IMG/VR virus record: IMGVR_UViG_3300045988_114759
DNA length: 64,000 bases
Source of the DNA: a virus
Direction: 5' to 3' (one strand)
Shown in pieces: positions 12,362 to 36,945 of the stretch. Made by a program: the position numbers and the translations under genes. Under the pieces are notes generated by a model. That model had not been told where the DNA came from, did not search any database, and saw nothing but the letters and a program-made list of their open reading frames with translations. How positions within the stretch are numbered: the stretch's first letter is position 1; each line of letters begins with the position of its first letter.

Positions 12362-12868
12362 ATGAGTAGATTAGTAGAAATTAAAGGATATGATGGAGAT
12401 TATTTTATTTCTGATTGCGGAGATGTTTTTTCTTTTAAATCAGGAAAGAGTAAGATCTTAAAGAAAAGGATAAATCAAGGAGGATACTATTATGTTAATT
12501 TATATAAAAATGGAAAGTATAAATCATTTTGTATTCATAGATTGGTCGGTATTTACTTTGTTGATAAATATGATGAAAATTTAAATGTTTTAAATCATAT
12601 AGATGGAAACAAATTAAATAATAACTATGATAATCTTGAATGGTGTACACTTTCTTATAATACTAAGGAAGCCATAAGATTGGGGCTGTTTAAAATAAGA
12701 AAGGGTGAAGAGTCAAATTTATATAGTGGAAAGATAAATAATGATGTGGCTAAAACGATAAGGGATATGAGAAATAATCGCAATATGTCTTATGGAGAAA
12801 TAGCCGATATTTTTGATTTATCACGCGCTACCATAATTAATATTTGTAAAAATAGGATTTATACATAA
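12362..12868 (+). CDS. HNH homing endonuclease (free-standing)
   Basis: The HRLV...NHIDGNKLNN.YDNLEW.TLSYN pattern (HNH with conserved His/Asn) fits. The C-terminal helix-turn-helix-like tail and the position next to the tRNA cluster are typical of phage HNH endonucleases. Confidence 0.7.
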   Translation: MSRLVEIKGYDGDYFISDCGDVFSFKSGKSKILKKRINQGGYYYVNLYKNGKYKSFCIHRLVGIYFVDKYDENLNVLNHIDGNKLNNNYDNLEWCTLSYNTKEAIRLGLFKIRKGEESNLYSGKINNDVAKTIRDMRNNRNMSYGEIADIFDLSRATIINICKNRIYT

Positions 12869-12875
12869 ATTTTAT

Positions 12876-12955
12876 CCGGTAGTATCCCCTCAAGCTTATA
12901 CCTTGTAGAAAGGGTAGTTGGTTACACGTGGGTTCAAATCCCTCCTACCGGACCA
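12876..12955 (+). tRNA. tRNA-like gene with encoded CCA; anticodon unresolved
   Basis: Acceptor stem ccggtag/ctaccgg. T-arm gtggg-TTCAAAT-ccctc. Discriminator A plus CCA. 45 nt lie between acceptor and T-arm, 4 more than a class I tRNA. The D-arm region lacks the usual GG and no clean anticodon stem was found. Confidence 0.45.
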
Positions 12956-12956
12956 C

Positions 12957-13027
12957 TGTCCAATGGTGTAGTGGTAGCACAACAGATTTTGGTTCTGTTA
13001 GCGGAGGTTCGAATCCTCCTTGGATAA
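12957..13027 (+). tRNA. tRNA-Gln (anticodon TTG)
   Basis: Acceptor tgtccaa/ttggata, with the U1-A72 pair typical of bacterial tRNA-Gln. Anticodon stem acaga/tctgt with loop ttTTGgt. T-arm ggagg-TTCGAAT-cctcc. Confidence 0.7.
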
Positions 13028-13097
13028 CAATAAGTTTTTGTGTAAAGTGTTAATTATCTCAGTGTTTGCGGTGTGCGAACATAGCAAACATGAATCT

Positions 13098-13169
13098 GGC
13101 CCATTAGTTTAACGGATAAAACCTTTGAGTCCTAATCAAAAGTTGCCTGTTCGATTCAGGCATGGGCTA
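13098..13169 (+). tRNA. tRNA-Arg (anticodon CCT)
   Basis: Acceptor ggcccat/atgggct. D-arm gttt-aacggat-aaac. Anticodon stem tttga/tcaaa with loop gtCCTaa. Variable loop agtt. T-arm gcctg-TTCGATT-caggc. Confidence 0.75.
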
Positions 13170-13172
13170 CAT

Positions 13173-13244
13173 GGCTTGTTGGATGAGTGGTTTAGTCAGG
13201 GGTCCGCAAAACCTCGTATGGCGGTTCGATTCCGCTACAAGCCT
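13173..13244 (+). tRNA. tRNA with GCA anticodon (Cys-like) and unusual C at position 33
   Basis: Acceptor ggcttgt/acaagcc. D-loop contains GG. Anticodon stem ggggt/acctc with loop ccGCAaa. Variable loop gtat. T-arm ggcgg-TTCGATT-ccgct. C33 in place of the near-universal U33 makes the identity uncertain. Confidence 0.55.
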
Positions 13245-13261
13245 CTAAAAAAAGTAAGACA

Positions 13262-16802: not shown

Positions 16803-17360
16803 ATGGTACAAGATATTGATATAAAATCCAAACGAATATTATTGTTTGATTTTGATGGAACGCTTATAGAAACCGCTTCTGGGAATACGTTCGCTACAGA
16901 CTTGACAGATATGAGGATTAAGATGGATGTGGTGAATAAGGCTCTTGACCTCATGTAGGAGAACGGTGTTAAGGTATTTGCTATCGTAAGCAATCAAGGA
17001 GGAGTAGAAGCTGGGTTTGTTTCTGGAGCTGATATTGAAGCTAAGATAGAATACGTACTGAGGTGCGTACATGATCTGGCGGTAAAGAGAGGCATAAGAG
17101 GCGTCTTGTATGAAAAAAGGTTGTGTTATTCAAATGACGAACAAAATCCGATGAGGAAGCCTAACACGGGCATGATTGATGATATTCTTATGAAGTGTAA
17201 AGACACGGTAATGCGCGGTATGAACTTCAGTCAACTTAAGGGATGTTCGTTGATGGTCGGGGACGCCAGTGGTCTGCCAGGTCAGTTCTCTGATTCGGAT
17301 AAGGTATGTGCTTATAATGCTGGTATTGACTATATGGATAATTACTACGTTTTTGGATAA
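16803..17360 (+). pseudogene. HAD-superfamily phosphatase interrupted by a single in-frame TAG at 16956-16958
   Basis: Motif I LFDFDGTL (DxDGT). After the TAG, the same frame continues with motif II IVSNQGG, motif III RKPNTGMI and motif IV MVGDASGL. The order and spacing resemble GmhB/PNK-type 3'-phosphatases. The ORF table splits this frame into 16740-16958 and 17106-17360. Confidence 0.6.
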
Positions 17361-17682
17361 AGATCTTGATTTAGAATATGTATTGTCCAAAGAACATACA
17401 AGTGAAGGAATAGTTATTTTAAATAATGGCTATATATATATCCTTGAAAATCCATATGGTGTTGGTCTTAATATAAAAATCACTTTAAAAGATTTTTATA
17501 AGATTGAAACCGATGATGGAAAAAATGCAACCGTAGATGATGTGCTGAATATAAGGATTGATAAAGATCGGAATTTCAATTCATATAGTGATGTTGTAAA
17601 GATAGAGGTATTAGAAGACGGTAGTATCAAATATATAAGTTTGTATCATGAAAGTAAAGAAAGCAGCGATAGTTTATCATAA
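17269..17682 (+). CDS. hypothetical protein (start uncertain)
   Basis: ORF in another frame overlapping the 3' end of the HAD gene. There is no internal Met after residue 17, and a TTG start near 17353 is possible. Confidence 0.3.
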   Translation: MVCQVSSLIRIRYVLIMLVLTIWIITTFLDKDLDLEYVLSKEHTSEGIVILNNGYIYILENPYGVGLNIKITLKDFYKIETDDGKNATVDDVLNIRIDKDRNFNSYSDVVKIEVLEDGSIKYISLYHESKESSDSLS

Positions 17683-20047: not shown

Positions 20048-20544
20048 CAAGGCACGGAGAGCGCCGTTAAGCTCTCCAAAGGTTTGACGCGTACCGTTAA
20101 ACGTGTCTGTACGCCGTTGTCAGTGGGTGCACGTCCCGCGTATGCTTTAGACTGAAGCTGACAAAATAGAGAGTTATTTTACATATTGGAGATAGATATA
20201 CCATTGCCCTTGCCGTTGGCAATTAAAGGGCCGGTATTACTGCATGGACTATCCGAATAGGTATGGTTTATGTTAGGTATGTGAGTATAGTTTAGAAAAT
20301 ATACCGTTGTACGAGGTTTGTCTCCGTTCGGGAACGTGTCTTACTTGCCTACACGTAAAATAGGACAAGGCTGTAGATTAAATTACAGGGTATGAGCATG
20401 TAACCTATCATGTAGGAGCATCTTATATCAAAACGCAAGGACACAATCGCCTTTATTTGTGGCTAAATTGTGTAGCAGACGGAAAATATAATAACAACAT
20501 AGTACGGGCCTGTACGCAAGAACTACGTACTAATTACGGGCTGT

Positions 20545-20608
20545 TGGTTGTAGCATAAAATCTCTATAGGATAGGAATGCGTGTCCGGTTCGATTCCGGA
20601 GCAACCTC
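20545..20608 (+). other. tRNA-3'-half-like element (T-arm tccgg-TTCGATT-ccgga plus acceptor-like stem tggttgt/gcaacct), too short to be a full tRNA
   Basis: Only 32 nt separate the acceptor 5' strand and the T-stem, where about 41 are needed. The element lies immediately upstream of the small ORF at 20632. Confidence 0.4.
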
Positions 20609-20631
20609 TAAATTATAAACAATATAATAAC

Positions 20632-20838
20632 ATGGAAAGGAAATTTAAATCTTATATGGTAGACGTCCGCGGTCTGTCCAGGAAAGAAGCTAAAGAAAAG
20701 CGGAAAAGAGCGTATCGTGAATTTATGTTGTATCGTGATCTTAAAGAAGCGTATCATGCCGATACCGGAAAAGAAAAGTGCAAGCGTAAAGTTCATACGT
20801 CAAGAACGTACGTTAAGGAAAATATAAACAGTATTTAA
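20632..20838 (+). CDS. small basic protein (68 aa)
   Basis: The ATG at 20632 is preferred over the GTG-initiated extension listed from 20581, because that extension reads through the tRNA-like element. Confidence 0.4.
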   Translation: MERKFKSYMVDVRGLSRKEAKEKRKRAYREFMLYRDLKEAYHADTGKEKCKRKVHTSRTYVKENINSI

Positions 20839-20842
20839 ATAG

Positions 20843-20885
20843 GAATAGGGTTGTTTCGAATATCGGAGCAGCCCTATTTTTGTAT
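20843..20885 (+). terminator. putative intrinsic terminator
   Basis: Stem atagggttg/cagccctat followed by TTTTTG. Confidence 0.4.
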
Positions 20886-21204
20886 CCTACTCTTTCTATT
20901 TACGGGTAGGATATTCTGAGAGTGAACACGACGACAAACAAGGTAGGAATGCGTATATTGGTTCAAATCGAAACAAAAATAAGGCTGTTTGGATATAATT
21001 CCGGTATTTTGTCTATATCATGTCGTTAAAATTGGTCTAAAACGAAACTTTAGGCGGTTTTCTGACCCAAAATAGGGCGTCAGATGCCGCCTTTTTCGTC
21101 TCTATGGATTGAAAATTAGGCTTATTGTATTTTTCTTAAAAATGAGGTATGCTTGATTATCAATTAGTTAGATTTTATAATCCCCGTATTTTCGGGCATA
21201 CTTA

Positions 21205-21390
21205 TTGTATTTTTTTTATTTTATGTGGTGGTTTTTATTAGTGGCTGACTTGTATTTTCTGTCGGTTGGTATTCGTTCTATGTTAGAGTACGGGCCGGAT
21301 CAGTATAATATCGTAATGGTCTTTTGCTTTTCTTTATTGGCTTTGATTATAGGCTTAAATATCTATCTTGATAGGAGGAGCAGACGGTAG
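21205..21390 (+). CDS. small membrane protein (2 predicted TM helices)
   Basis: 61 aa with two hydrophobic stretches (FMWWFLLVADLYFLSVGI and VMVFCFSLLALIIGLNIYL). Confidence 0.3.
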   Translation: MYFFYFMWWFLLVADLYFLSVGIRSMLEYGPDQYNIVMVFCFSLLALIIGLNIYLDRRSRR

Positions 21391-21576
21391 GGCGTGTGCT
21401 GAAGACTCTCTATTCTCTCTATGGAATGATATTATCTCCAAACACCCCACACTTCATGCCAGAGTATAAGCTTGTAGCGCTCTTCGTATGCCGGTAGTGA
21501 GGCGGTAGGGCGCAGGTTCTATGCGGAAAGATAGAGGATTAGACGGGGTGGGATTGGGGGAGAGGGAGGGCACTCT

Positions 21577-21850
21577 CCTCCAACAAAATTCAATAGATCA
21601 GAGCTTTAAAACAGCCAACAAAACTCAATAGATCAGAGCTTTAAAACAGCATTTTGTGGTTTCTTCCAACAAAATTCAATAGATCAGAGCTTTAAAACAG
21701 CCAACAAAATTCAATAGATCAACGTTTTAAAACAGCATTTTGTAGTTTCTTCCAACAAAATTCAACAGATCAACGTTTTAAAACAGCATAATGTAGGATT
21801 TTCCAACAAAATTAAGACTTACAGCGTTTTTAAAACAGTATTCTGTAGGT
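21577..21850. repeat. second tandem repeat array (~7 copies of ~35-bp unit CCAACAAAATTCAATAGATCAGAGCTTTAAAACAG, alternating with CATTTTGTGGTTTCTT spacers)
   Basis: Counted directly in the sequence. Preceded by the G-rich tract gggtgggattgggggagagggaggg at 21545-21570. Confidence 0.85.
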
Positions 21851-21920
21851 AAGAGTTAAGGACTGCATTATGTGAGTATTTTTTTTAATCGGAATGTATA
21901 ACAATTAAAACATAAACAAC

Positions 21921-22181
21921 ATGAACGTATATGACTTTGCGCCTGACTTAGATTTGAGTAAGGAGGGAGAAGGTTCTATTTTTGGAGTGAAAGGAATAGA
22001 AGGTAGTGATGGTATAGTATATGCTAAGGTAGTTAGCTGTGCAGAAGTTAAGGATTACAGTTGTGATAGGTGTATTTTTTATGATTGTTATAAGGATAAA
22101 TGTTTGTTATCGCGTAGTAATAGTTGTATAGATGGAGACTGGTGTTGTAGGTACGAACAGGCTGCCATAGAGGGGGAGTAG
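21921..22181 (+). CDS. small cysteine-rich protein (10 Cys in 86 aa)
   Basis: C...C..C....C....C......C....CC pattern. Possibly metal-binding. Confidence 0.4.
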   Translation: MNVYDFAPDLDLSKEGEGSIFGVKGIEGSDGIVYAKVVSCAEVKDYSCDRCIFYDCYKDKCLLSRSNSCIDGDWCCRYEQAAIEGE

Positions 22182-22213
22182 GCGGCGCCTTGGGCTAAGG
22201 CCTGCGGTTGTAG

Positions 22214-22537
22214 GTGGAACGTAGGTCGGAGCAGAGCCAGGACAGTTTATTGTGGAACGTAAAAAGAAAAAAGATGGAAAGGACAATACATTATATTTGG
22301 ATAAATTGGGTATCTTCTACAGGTTCGGAAAGTAGTAGGCTAATAAGCAACAGGTCTATGCCGGTATCAGATGCCAAAGAGATGATATTAAGAACGAGTG
22401 CTAAAGAATTGCTTAAATACAGACCGAGTTGGTTAAAGGACTGTGTTCGTATTAGTGTAAGTGCACAGGATATTACGACCGGAGAGATCCTGTATAGAAG
22501 AACTATAAACATAAAGAAGAAGGAGATAGCGATATGA
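22214..22537 (+). CDS. hypothetical protein
   Basis: 107-aa ORF. Confidence 0.4.
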   Translation: MERRSEQSQDSLLWNVKRKKMERTIHYIWINWVSSTGSESSRLISNRSMPVSDAKEMILRTSAKELLKYRPSWLKDCVRISVSAQDITTGEILYRRTINIKKKEIAI

Positions 22538-22656
22538 AAAAGGCATTTAAGATATTTTCTATTATGTTTGTCATAGAAATAGTGCTGATAGCTATTTTAG
22601 ATGCTATGGCGTAAGTGAGAAAAATTTCTTCATTAATTTTCTTATGCTTTAAACAG

Positions 22657-22684
22657 AGTGCTCCCGTCTGCGAAGATCGGAGCA
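22657..22684 (+). other. hairpin with conserved loop GTCTGCGAAGAT (copy 1)
   Basis: The gtgctcc...ggagcac stem shares its loop sequence with the terminator hairpin at 27145. Confidence 0.4.
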
Positions 22685-22693
22685 CTTGCTTTA

Positions 22694-22738
22694 TGGGATT
22701 CATGGTGCGGTAGGTCGGTTCGATTCCGGCGATCTCAC
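22694..22738 (+). other. tRNA-3'-half-like element (gtcgg-TTCGATT-ccggc T-arm, tgggatt/gatctca acceptor-like stem)
   Basis: Only 13 nt separate the 5' acceptor-like strand and the T-stem. The element sits immediately upstream of the ORF at 22768. Confidence 0.4.
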
Positions 22739-22767
22739 ACAACATTAAAAACAAAGGAGGAAAGAAA

Positions 22768-23109
22768 ATGAAAGATGGCATTAAATTGCATCCAGAACAC
22801 GGATTGAATCCGTCTATAGAAGTCTGCATGATATGTGGCGAAGAGATGGGGATTGCTTTATTAGGGAATAACATCAAGGGGCAGGCGCCGCATCATATAT
22901 GCACGGGCGAAGTATGTGACAATTGCAAAAAGATAATAGATGATGGAGGTTGTTTTATTATCGAAGTCGAGGATGGATCAGATCAAAAGAATCCGTATCG
23001 TACAGGAAGATATTGTGCGATAAAGAAAGAGGCGGCAAAGAAAATGTTTGGACAGGAGCATAATATTGTGTACATGGAAAAGTCTGCGTACAATCTAATA
23101 ATACCATAA
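22768..23109 (+). CDS. zinc-binding protein (CxxC...HH.C...C..C)
   Basis: 113 aa with the motif CMICGEE...HHICTGEVCDNCKK. Preceded by an AAAGGAGG ribosome-binding site. Confidence 0.45.
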   Translation: MKDGIKLHPEHGLNPSIEVCMICGEEMGIALLGNNIKGQAPHHICTGEVCDNCKKIIDDGGCFIIEVEDGSDQKNPYRTGRYCAIKKEAAKKMFGQEHNIVYMEKSAYNLIIP

Positions 23110-23210
23110 AAATGAAGAGAGATATGTTTACAAAAGAAGAGCGATTATTCATATGGAAAAAGGTATATGCTGTATCATAGAGGGGATGACGCGGCGTGCC
23201 GGTATGTATG

Positions 23211-23245
23211 TGTCGGTTCTGGTTCGATTCTGGGCATCTCACAAA
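23211..23245 (+). other. degenerate third copy of the TTCGATTC..GG/ATCTCACAAACA motif
   Basis: Shares TTCGATTC and ATCTCACA(A/C)AACA with the 22694 copy. Sits upstream of the ORF at 23264. Confidence 0.35.
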
Positions 23246-23263
23246 CAATAAAACAAAAGAGTT

Positions 23264-23494
23264 ATGAGAATATACAAGAATGATATTATAAAGGCGTCAG
23301 CGATAAACACCGGCGCAGACAGAGGTGTGTTACTGTGTTCAATAACAGATTCAGGATTCACGTCTATAGCGGGCGTAATATCGGCTGTTAAGGATAAGTT
23401 ACCAGGCAAAGATCATAAGAAGATGATTTTTGAAATACGGAATGATGGAAGAAACGAATATGGTAGATATAATAATTGTGGAGGAAAAATATGA
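23264..23494 (+). CDS. hypothetical protein
   Basis: 76-aa ORF. Confidence 0.35.
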   Translation: MRIYKNDIIKASAINTGADRGVLLCSITDSGFTSIAGVISAVKDKLPGKDHKKMIFEIRNDGRNEYGRYNNCGGKI

Positions 23495-23766
23495 AATACA
23501 GAGGTCTGTTGCTCCCTATGATATTAGCTGCAATGTGCGGAGATGATGCCTTTGTGCTAAATACTAAAAGGGGAAAAGGAATGCAATCTACATATAGAAG
23601 AGAAAAGATTGTCAGAACAGAAAAAGAATTTGATATTAATGGTACTAAAGTAATGGCATACTCAAGAAAGGATGCCATTAAGAGATTAAAACATAAGAAG
23701 TGGAAAACGTATTTTTATGTTAATGTTAGTTTTTTCATTTTTATTGAAAGGAGCGCCGGCCCGTGA
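23476..23766 (+). CDS. hypothetical protein
   Basis: 96-aa ORF overlapping the previous stop. Confidence 0.35.
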   Translation: MWRKNMKYRGLLLPMILAAMCGDDAFVLNTKRGKGMQSTYRREKIVRTEKEFDINGTKVMAYSRKDAIKRLKHKKWKTYFYVNVSFFIFIERSAGP

Positions 23767-27144: not shown

Positions 27145-27181
27145 CGGCACTGGTCTGCGAAGATAGGTGCCGTTTTTTTTA
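27145..27181 (+). terminator. intrinsic terminator; hairpin loop GTCTGCGAAGAT, then T8
   Basis: The cggcac...gtgccg stem is followed by TTTTTTTT. Downstream comes an AAAGGAGG ribosome-binding site and the ATG of the next gene. Confidence 0.65.
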
Positions 27182-27201
27182 TTCAAGAAAGGAGGACAAA
27201 G

Positions 27202-36131: not shown

Positions 36132-36598
36132 TGATAAGAAGTCATGGCTTATGCCAGGCTTGCAGGAGCAAAGAGTTGACTCCGAAGAAAAAAGACAGAA
36201 TTACATCCATTAAAAACAACAGCAAGAAGAAAAAGTTAGAGAGCCCGGATTTATCCGGGTTTTTTCGTCTTATGCTGGAGGAGTTGAATAGTATTCGAAT
36301 GTCTATGACCGGTAAGGCTATTCATTTTCCTACAGTATGTAACGTATGTCACATACTTCCAAAAAGGATATATAAGTCGGTTGCCACTTGCAGAGATAAT
36401 ATAGTTTTTCTACATGAATCGGAGCATACGGTATTCGACATGTATCTTGACAGGATGGAATTTGATAAACTTGAAACAGAATTTCCTTTTGTGTGGAAGT
36501 ATGCGGTAAAGAAGGTACTGGATATGGAAAACAGGGGAATGATTAAAGAAAGAGGTAGGTTGATTATTGAAATAATTGACAGGTATAACCCCAAATAG
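36086..36598 (+). CDS. zinc-ribbon protein
   Basis: 170 aa. The N-terminus reads CERCGRK...HGLCQACRS (CxxC...CxxC). Later Cys/His residues follow. Confidence 0.4.
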   Translation: MEKKLYVCERCGRKVMIRSHGLCQACRSKELTPKKKDRITSIKNNSKKKKLESPDLSGFFRLMLEELNSIRMSMTGKAIHFPTVCNVCHILPKRIYKSVATCRDNIVFLHESEHTVFDMYLDRMEFDKLETEFPFVWKYAVKKVLDMENRGMIKERGRLIIEIIDRYNPK

Positions 36599-36945
36599 TA
36601 TTAAACCAATATAATTCTATTATAAAAGTTTAATACATCTCTTTCAGAGATCGGGTTATTAGCCTAAGTGTTGAAACAAACACTACGTTATTTGAGAATA
36701 TATAGTTACCTACGGATGTTTGCCCAAGTCTGTAGCTCTAAGGATGGTGATTAAACAGGAGTAGTGTATTTGACGAAACAGTGTTGCCATTATATAAAAC
36801 CTCTTATAACATTGGCGATGGGTACTAACAGGATGAAATATTCCTGACTTATCCCTAACGGGATTTACATCTACCAAGGAGACCGAAAGGTCTCCGAGGG
36901 GATGTATTAAAACAGATGAGTAGTTTTAAATATATTTAATAGAAT

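Follow-up and report, generated by a model that had tools for sequence, protein, structure and literature searches.

The window analysed here is a 64,000-nucleotide (nt) stretch of viral DNA (IMG/VR record IMGVR_UViG_3300045988_114759), and our subject is a set of three small elements on its + strand, E1 (20546-20607), E2 (22694-22738) and E3 (23182-23242), each of which lies just upstream of a small gene. We found that all three fold into the acceptor/T-arm half of a tRNA, that the folds are under structural selection in related phages, and that each fold belongs to a larger module akin to the hairpin-tRNA units of other gut phages. The reading that we favour, and to which we give about an even chance, is that E1-E3 are tRNA-derived, armless t-elements that would be cut by RNase P and RNase Z, punctuating early transcripts.

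The window comes from an epsilon crAss-like phage related to crAssE-Sib (OR575929; 151 kb, from human gut), to which the region is 83-91% identical. crAssE-Sib is an epsilon crAss-like phage with 196 open reading frames (ORFs) and six tRNAs, and its description does not mention tRNA-like elements (PMC11054128). On the complementary strand of OR575929, the counterpart of E1 lies at 507-576 and that of E2/E3 at 148.5-149.9 kb; the three elements flank the position in the window that matches the physical genome ends of crAssE-Sib. The genes neighbouring E1-E3 are all encoded on the + strand of the window. We use E4 for a fourth element and E0 for a further site at 12876-12952, both of which are described below.

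Structure and conservation of the elements

Each element consists of an acceptor stem of 6-7 base pairs (bp) stacked directly on a canonical 5-bp T-stem with a 7-nt T-loop, and an insert of 13-32 nt takes the place of the D and anticodon arms. Related loci (at least 119) were collected by one pattern scan of viral contigs, and the variant counts given below are among the matches listed. The alignments held 33 distinct variants of E1, 47 of E2 and 50 of E3. The features of the three modules are as follows (aa, amino acids; RBS, ribosome-binding site).

20504-20544, + strand: E1 upstream hairpin; 10-bp stem, 99.4% paired, one pair changed on both sides and two on one side
20500-20506/20526-20532, + strand: E1 second helix, interleaved with the upstream hairpin; 100% paired, two compensatory pairs
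20546-20607, + strand: E1 tRNA-like fold; four helices 100% paired in 33 variants, matched by 0/500 shuffles
20546-20551/20601-20606, + strand: E1 acceptor, GGTTGT/GCAACC, 6 bp
20553-20580, + strand: E1 central arm, GCAT..ATGC plus AUCU/GGAU
20584-20600, + strand: E1 T-arm, TCCGG-TTCGATT-CCGGA; discriminator T at 20607
20608-20838, + strand: E1 trailer and ORF, CTAAATTATAAAC...; conserved trailer CTAAAT, ATG at 20632, 68 aa
22656-22687, + strand: E2 upstream hairpin, terminator-type; 9-bp stem with apical GUCU-GCGA-AGAU, then UUGCUUUAU; 99.0% paired, three pairs changed on both sides
22694-22738, + strand: E2 tRNA-like minihelix; acceptor 99.7% and T-stem 99.6% paired in 47 variants
22694-22700/22731-22737, + strand: E2 acceptor, TGGGATT/GATCTCA, 7 bp, two of them G·U
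22714-22730, + strand: E2 T-arm, GTCGG-TTCGATT-CCGGC; discriminator C at 22738
22739-23109, + strand: E2 trailer and ORF, ACACAAYATTAAAA (22739-22752), then an RBS and a 113-aa ORF (ATG 22768)
23182-23242, + strand: E3 tRNA-like fold; acceptor 97.7% and T-stem 99.6% paired
23182-23188/23235-23241, + strand: E3 acceptor, GGGGATG/CATCTCA, 6/7 pairs
23218-23234, + strand: E3 T-arm, TCTGG-TTCGATT-CTGGG, preceded by a 29-nt centre; discriminator C at 23242
23243-23494, + strand: E3 trailer and ORF, conserved AAACAATAAAAC, then a 76-aa ORF (ATG 23264)
13223, 20587, 22717 and 23221, all + strand: exact matches to the 10-mer GGTTCGATTC, the first within the true tRNA-Cys

The exact 10-mer GGTTCGATTC occurs four times in the 64-kb window against 0.12 copies expected, and 0/100 shuffles gave four. 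Scanning the whole window for a TTYRANY T-loop, 5/5 T-stem pairs and at least 6/7 acceptor pairs with an upstream heptamer returned the three true tRNAs and E1-E3 only. Shuffled sequences gave a mean of 2.6 matches in the same loose scan, and the strength of the case therefore rests on the exact common T-arm and on clustering. Single-sequence folding Z-scores were weak (-1.2, -0.1 and +0.6), so that thermodynamics alone does not single out E1-E3.

A first-pass annotation of the region had reported tRNA-3'-half-like elements at three sites. The exact T-arm match and the fold scan recovered all three at the positions given, with correct coordinates for E1 and E2. The third site, which had been described as a degenerate 35-nt copy (23211-23245), proved to be a complete element of ~61 nt whose 5' acceptor strand, GGGGATG at 23182-23188, had been overlooked. 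The spacing of 20-35 nt between element end and start codon agrees with the distances from discriminator to ATG, which are 24, 29 and 21 nt (ATG 20632, 22768 and 23264). A second shared motif, ATCTCACA(C/A)AACA, is indeed present in copies 2 and 3, but taken alone it is not above chance at two mismatches. That the sites are parts of a larger module, with an upstream hairpin and a conserved trailer, was not recognised there.

E1 was absent from the contig-scan pattern, so that its variants form an unbiased sample. The whole E1 model (hairpin, acceptor, two-part central arm and T-arm) was 99.8% paired over 957 cells, with five pairs changed on both sides. None of 500 shuffles reached any of the five measures used, and shifting the partners lowered pairing to 36-49%. 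The T-stem runs through TCCGG/CCGGA, TCTGG/CCAGA and TTCGG/CCGAA, a series of compensatory changes from C-G to U-A, and the central arm has a compensatory variant of its own (AUCU/GGAU to AUUC/GAAU). In E2, one compensatory pair (G-C to A-U) accompanies many wobble-preserving changes, and the pairing also holds in variants outside the search pattern, such as the compensatory GTCAG/CTGGC. The E3 acceptor carries a compensatory G-C to A-U change in contig L016, its T-stem has many wobble-preserving changes, and its upstream hairpin, as seen in relatives, has five one-sided changes.

Across E1-E3, the acceptor and T stems were 97.7-100% paired, though 50% of the T-stem columns vary. Within their alignments, the segments that varied least were the acceptor in E1, the T-loop in E3 and both of these in E2. 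The T-loop (TTCGATT) varies only at R57 (G/A), 59 and 60, as real T-loops do, with the single exception of a T54-to-C change in one contig. The arrangement found is that of a 7-bp acceptor stem adjoining a T stem of 5 bp, which closes a T54-T55-C56-R57-A58 loop. Numerous pairs are G·U, for example 3:70 and 7:66 in E2 and those of the E3 T-stem; on the opposite strand each would become an A·C mismatch, and the fold therefore exists as mRNA-sense RNA only. The centres vary freely, and that of E3 has lost 14 nt in contigs L039 and L071, which indicates that it is dispensable. The E1-E3 folds are under structural selection, and the elements, which the first-pass annotation would have abandoned had they lacked conservation or covariation in related phages, have both.

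The view that the sites are not full tRNAs also held. With default settings, ARAGORN called tRNA-Gln, tRNA-Arg and tRNA-Cys at 12957-13245 as the only tRNAs in the window, none at E1-E3, and no tmRNA. Searching Rfam at the gathering score over the whole window gave only HEARO and these same three tRNAs, and at E<=10 nothing tRNA-like appeared in 20300-23500. None of the three sites yielded a canonical cloverleaf complete with D and anticodon arms, and full canonical tRNAs, which would have meant that the 5' halves had been misread, were not called by default ARAGORN or by Rfam at E<=10. The relaxed search that had been proposed as a check was also run (ARAGORN settings tried were default, intron, mitochondrial and an 80% threshold), and produced only low-quality calls that failed against the alignment. 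One of these, at 80% thresholds, was a 70-nt 'tRNA-Pro(AGG)' at E1, whose anticodon stem was 79% and D stem 75% paired and whose anticodon was variable among the 33 variants; moreover, its acceptor strand, GGGCTGT, belongs to the covarying upstream hairpin. A 93-nt 'tRNA-Met' over E3 was likewise rejected on the alignment evidence.

Several other identities were considered and rejected. A tmRNA is disfavoured because G3·U70 is not invariant in E2/E3, the only calls were 80%-threshold ARAGORN 'tmRNAp' predictions with implausible tags such as EKNFFINFLML, and no Rfam match was obtained; alanine identity as the selected feature fails on the same variability of G3·U70. For a bacterial Y RNA of the YrlA type, no Rfam family matched at E<=10 in 20300-23500, and the Ro60-like gene of crAssE-Sib lies ~75 kb away, outside the window. 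A tRNA 3' fragment of the att type does not agree with the covarying 5' acceptor strand; a complete twin tRNA is absent from the window, and the neighbouring ORFs scanned contain no integrase domain. Alternative pairings proposed by folding programs fared no better. The RNAfold alternative for E2 places its partners in the variable linker, a 13-nt stretch between acceptor and T-arm made up of CATGGTG and a variable part. With wide flanks included, RNAalifold favoured different partners for the E1 and E3 acceptor strands, but the tRNA-like model agrees better with the variation: a G-to-A change at position 66 of E1 keeps 7:66 and breaks the RNAalifold pair.

Module layout, relatives and gene exchange

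The order of parts in the module is constant: a terminator-type hairpin, the tRNA-like fold, a conserved A-rich trailer of ~14 nt and the ATG of a small gene. The hairpins of E2, E3 and E4 have an apical motif, GUYY-GNGA-RRAU, in common. In other gut-phage contigs, hairpins of this type, with the motif on a covarying stem, precede genuine full-length tRNAs by 2-4 nt. Within the window, the tRNA-Cys gene (13173-13245) shows the same layout, with a TCTAAA trailer, and ends 16 nt before ATG 13262; TCTAAA at the trailer start is common to E1 and this true tRNA. Neither the three window tRNAs nor E1-E3 encode CCA. The simplest history is that hairpin-tRNA units shed their decoding half and retained the half recognised by processing enzymes. 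The suggestion that the elements are remnants of tRNA genes is thus probably correct as to their origin, given the hairpin type that precedes real tRNAs in relatives, but it is not favoured for the state in which they now exist, where the stems are under structural selection.

The U-tracts of the upstream hairpins are weak, UUGCUUUAU for E2 and UAUUUCUGUAU for E3, and E1 has none. A scan for sigma-70 promoters and terminators did not rise above background; it returned nothing at the modules, and the upstream hairpins were not among its hits. At E1, the two helices at 20500-20544 both have compensatory support and are ordered as in a pseudoknot, with connecting loops of 0, 11 and 2 nt. These loops seem too short for the helices to coexist, and the two may be alternative folds. 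A further terminator hairpin, CGGCACTGGTCTGCGAAGATAGGTGCCG followed by T8, lies at ~27145-27185 (+ strand); its apical GUCU-GCGA-AGAU is that of the E2 upstream hairpin, and an RBS and a gene follow directly. The 113-aa ORF after E2 matches phrog_11852 (function unknown); apart from this match, Pfam and PHROGs gave no function for the three downstream ORFs.

The family extends beyond E1-E3. E4 (contig L037, 10976-11037) comprises the hairpin, GGGACGA, a 30-nt centre, a T-arm (AGCGG-TTCGATT-CCGCT) and the 3' strand CCGTCCC; a leader of 26 nt separates it from the ATG of a DUF4494 gene. E4 was found in 27 contigs; the window's own DUF4494 gene has no E4 in front of it. A strict scan of 88 further loci identified, at 10 of them (e.g. 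L153 6982-7046, - strand), a 65-nt element with a D arm, T arm, acceptor and a stunted anticodon arm, which stands behind the same hairpin and ~20 nt before an ATG. When the whole crAssE-Sib genome was scanned for acceptor/T-arm folds, E1-E3, most of the annotated tRNAs and one candidate by the Ro60-like gene were recovered; three further matches with non-consensus T-loops were taken as chance. The candidate, an unannotated match at OR575929 72571-72648 (+ strand), lies just before tRNA-Tyr, tRNA-Lys and the Ro60-like gene (73091-74725), and is a candidate Y-RNA-like or tRNA-like gene.

Two crAssE-Sib 'hypothetical proteins' overlap the modules: WOZ57404.1 (L001 2541-2699) overlaps the E3 module and WOZ57218.1 (L002 4246-4533) the upstream hairpin of E1. 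The ORF of WOZ57218.1 is not intact in the window, where 20048-20580 holds no + strand ORF of at least 60 aa. Both annotations are probably mis-annotated RNA elements.

The module borders are also sites of gene gain and loss. Among the 76 contigs with both elements in the matches listed, E2-E3 spacing ranged from 504 to 2209 nt, and the 504 nt of the window was unique. crAssE-Sib has an extra 134-aa gene directly after the E2 trailer; this trailer is kept, while the sequence that comes after it is of at least five kinds, depending on the genome. The E3 trailer is followed directly by the 76-aa ORF or, in other genomes including crAssE-Sib, by one or two extra genes first. A window-specific deletion of ~350 bp (23150-23181 compared with L001 2265-2618) ends 10 nt before E3 and removed most of a 104-aa gene together with the E3 upstream hairpin. 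Contig L046 is an E2/E3 recombinant, and L099 joins E2 to the gene after E3. Every gene gain or loss observed near E2 and E3 has a breakpoint no more than ~15 nt from a module border. Other variable slots further downstream have no modules, however, and we therefore regard gene shuffling as an accompanying property of the modules and not as their primary function. In the largely non-coding stretch of ~20850-21900, which matches the physical ends of crAssE-Sib, we also observed a tandem array (21579-21849, + strand) of 35/51/86-nt units (CCAACAAAATTCAATAGATCAGAGCTTTAAAACAG...) that could represent origin iterons, a packaging signal or early promoters.

Elsewhere in the window, E0 (12876-12952, + strand) is a tRNA-like gene of non-canonical form and occupies the place taken by tRNA(CAT) in relatives. 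It received no ARAGORN call and scored 28.3 bits against the Rfam tRNA model (gathering score 29), its D arm being deleted; its anticodon loop reads CUUAUAC (anticodon UAU), and the variable region is enlarged by an 18-nt insertion. In 62 viral contigs of different lineages, a core of 45 nt shows no change. Changes on both sides were seen in 6/7 acceptor pairs (100% pairing) and in three T-stem pairs (91% pairing). As ATA is the commonest Ile codon in the long ORFs of the window (307/683), E0 may be an unusual AUA decoder. The gene just upstream, which ends a few bases before E0, encodes an HNH homing endonuclease (NUMOD4 plus HNH_3; 12362-12868, + strand). Contigs L173, L174 and L195 are chimeras in which the 5' part of E0 is joined to the 3' acceptor strand of tRNA(CAT); their mismatched acceptor stems suggest allele replacement by recombination within the T-arm.

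Two other loci of the window should be recorded. A full-length HEARO RNA (IscB-type guide RNA family) at 36585-36829 (+ strand) scored 94.8 bits against a gathering score of 83 and has no adjacent IscB gene; the downstream 439-aa ORF matches exonuclease PHROGs only, with no Pfam match, and the upstream 170-aa ORF has no match. A homologue of polynucleotide kinase/3'-phosphatase (16806-17679, + strand) is split into two adjacent frames, covering residues 1-177 and 178-290, as a result of a frameshift, pseudogene formation or a sequencing error.

Proposed processing of early transcripts and competing explanations

Among the readings that the first-pass annotation had offered, punctuation by RNase P and RNase Z is the best fit to the anatomy. 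It is the acceptor/T-arm half that RNase P, RNase Z and the CCA-adding enzyme recognise in a tRNA. E1-E3 also have the structural mark of the t-element class, a tRNA-like fold with a conserved T-arm on the sense strand by a coding region; the other mark of the class, transcript ends made by RNase P and RNase Z at the element borders, is predicted for them. In the mechanism that we propose, the module would be transcribed within a longer + strand transcript. A cut by RNase P at the 5' end of the acceptor would leave an upstream RNA ending in a stable hairpin, shielded from 3' exonucleases. A cut by RNase Z after the discriminator would give a downstream mRNA that begins with a short, unstructured A-rich leader, 21-29 nt from the AUG. 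A mini-tRNA of 45-62 nt would be released, and might be CCA-tailed.

Several points weigh against this proposal. Cleavage at the borders of E1-E3 is something that we infer entirely from the anatomy of the modules. RNase P processes minihelices less well than full tRNAs, and the first acceptor pair is U-A in E2 and a G·A mismatch in E3, which are unusual +1 contexts for this enzyme. Efficient termination at the upstream hairpins, if it occurs, would leave little read-through RNA containing the elements. The 3' halves of E2 and E3 were partly fixed by the contig-scan pattern, and the related contigs are close kin (~83-95% identity), so that the covariation represents few independent events. For the promoters of crAss-like virion RNA polymerases no early motif is known (bioRxiv 10.1101/2020.03.07.982082), and with the early promoter motif undefined, the transcription units here are not placeable.

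It is possible, but in our judgement unlikely, that the elements act in trans as mini-tRNAs, that is, as excised, CCA-tailed, stable small RNAs serving as decoys or sponges for tRNA-targeting host factors (e.g. defence toxins) or as partners of a phage RNA toolkit. Selection on the acceptor, T-arm and T-loop matches the needs of a tRNA mimic, and crAssE-Sib is annotated with such a toolkit: a Ro60-like protein, a polyA/CCA-type nucleotidyltransferase, a polynucleotide kinase-phosphatase and a DHH phosphoesterase. In L037, E4 lies 1.3 kb downstream of the nucleotidyltransferase gene. However, tblastn did not find the crAssE-Sib nucleotidyltransferase in the window, and the kinase there is frameshifted. 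E2 and E3 carry G2-C71, G3·U70 and G4-C69, the alanine acceptor signature, but G3·U70 is not strict and gives way to G-C or A-U in some variants. The strict spacing of 21-29 nt to the start codons and the conserved trailer suggest a role in cis, and there is no evidence for independent promoters. In its widest form, in which the acceptor/T-arm would be the general scaffold of a hidden small-RNA class in gut crAss-like phages (E1-E4, the 65-nt element and E0), released, CCA-tailed and acting in trans, with mRNA punctuation as a mere by-product, the idea seems to us equally doubtful. Rather unlikely, too, is an uncleaved structure of the 5' untranslated region that acts in cis by insulating the A-rich ribosome-loading leader, stabilizing the 5' end or binding a regulatory protein. 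The constant position just before the A-rich leader would suit such a structure, as would the trailer, which stays whichever gene follows. Most nearby genes lack a Shine-Dalgarno sequence, an absence that is expected with Bacteroidota-type initiation. This explanation does not account for the preservation of the T-loop and of the 7+5-bp acceptor/T stack in at least four dissimilar elements, for which a generic hairpin would suffice, or for the real tRNA (Cys) that takes the same position before ORF 13262.

We consider it improbable that the elements function at the DNA level, either as repeated cassettes for modular gene shuffling or as single-stranded DNA hairpin promoters for the injected virion RNA polymerase. 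The breakpoints at module borders and the recombinants L046 and L099 would accord with cassettes, for which the PeSL units of other phages are precedents (PMC2839356, PMC4122927). The crAss-like virion polymerase favours single-stranded DNA (bioRxiv 10.1101/2020.03.07.982082), and this preference, together with early promoters of no known motif, would accord with hairpin promoters. Yet the G·U pairs and the pattern of T-loop conservation point to an RNA fold of the sense strand; E1, E2/E3 and E4 share ~13 nt, too little for efficient homologous exchange, and recombination between the repeats may be a side-effect instead of a selected function. Neutral relics, whether decaying tRNA pseudogenes or 3' tRNA fragments from integrase-type insertions, appear highly improbable. 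Such fragments are common by-products of element integration (PMC9897764), the region is hyperplastic, and the tRNA(CAT) slot of the window has been remodelled beside an HNH homing endonuclease gene. Against this, each element has a matching 5' acceptor strand, and 98-100% of cells are paired despite substitutions, with compensatory changes; this covariation largely excludes neutral relics. Nor does the window hold a full-length twin tRNA, or the neighbouring ORFs scanned an integrase domain. The trans-acting, untranslated-region and DNA-level explanations are all compatible with punctuation, and the last of these can coexist with it.

The modules give nucleotide-precise predictions for RNase P/RNase Z-dependent mRNA maturation in a Bacteroidales phage, a process so far documented mainly from organelles and eukaryotic nuclei. 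The start, end and processing of early transcripts are largely obscure in this abundant group of human-gut phages. The modules also indicate that standard tRNA finders overlook a layer of tRNA-derived genes in gut phages, that module borders are sites of gene exchange, and that GenBank 'hypothetical proteins' probably cover RNA elements.

Comparison with known processing elements

The closest likeness is to the t-elements of plant mitochondria, which were found with a GGTTCRANYCC search and direct RNase P/RNase Z cuts at mRNA ends; once excised, they can gain non-templated C/A (PMC1920247). Like these, E1-E3 combine a non-canonical tRNA-like fold, a GGTTCRANYCC T-arm and an acceptor stem within an mRNA precursor by a coding region. 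The t-elements, however, are organellar, non-homologous and mostly degenerate cloverleaves of ~74 nt, whereas E1-E3 have an insert of 13-32 nt, come with a hairpin and a trailer, and are predicted to be cleaved.

In the mascRNA/MALAT1, MEN-beta and MHV68 TMER systems, RNase P yields a stabilized upstream 3' end, and the tRNA-like RNA set free is a substrate of RNase Z and the CCA-adding enzyme. These systems come from eukaryotic nuclei or herpesviruses; their folds resemble full cloverleaves, and they have a triple helix in place of the hairpin. As in MALAT1/mascRNA, a structure that may protect the upstream RNA directly precedes the tRNA-like fold at E1-E3, but here it is a hairpin. Bacterial RNase P cleaves polycistronic mRNAs and phage regulatory RNAs (P1/P7 C4, P4 CI) that mimic the acceptor/T-stem stack; these non-tRNA substrates have no true T-loop and are not repeated modules before genes.

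The PeSL cassettes of T4-type phages are short, repeated promoter and stem-loop units between small early genes in hyperplastic regions (PMC2839356, PMC4122927). Insertions and deletions are bounded by cassettes in both cases, but PeSL units show no tRNA mimicry, and no promoter was identifiable at E1-E3. E1-E3 resemble canonical phage tRNA genes in the T-arm sequence, in encoding no CCA, in the trailer and the distance to the ATG, and in the type of upstream hairpin seen in relatives. Unlike those genes, they have no D arm, anticodon arm or conserved anticodon, and are missed by tRNA finders. tRNA-like processing elements as such are known; what would be new here is their phage-borne, armless and modular form.

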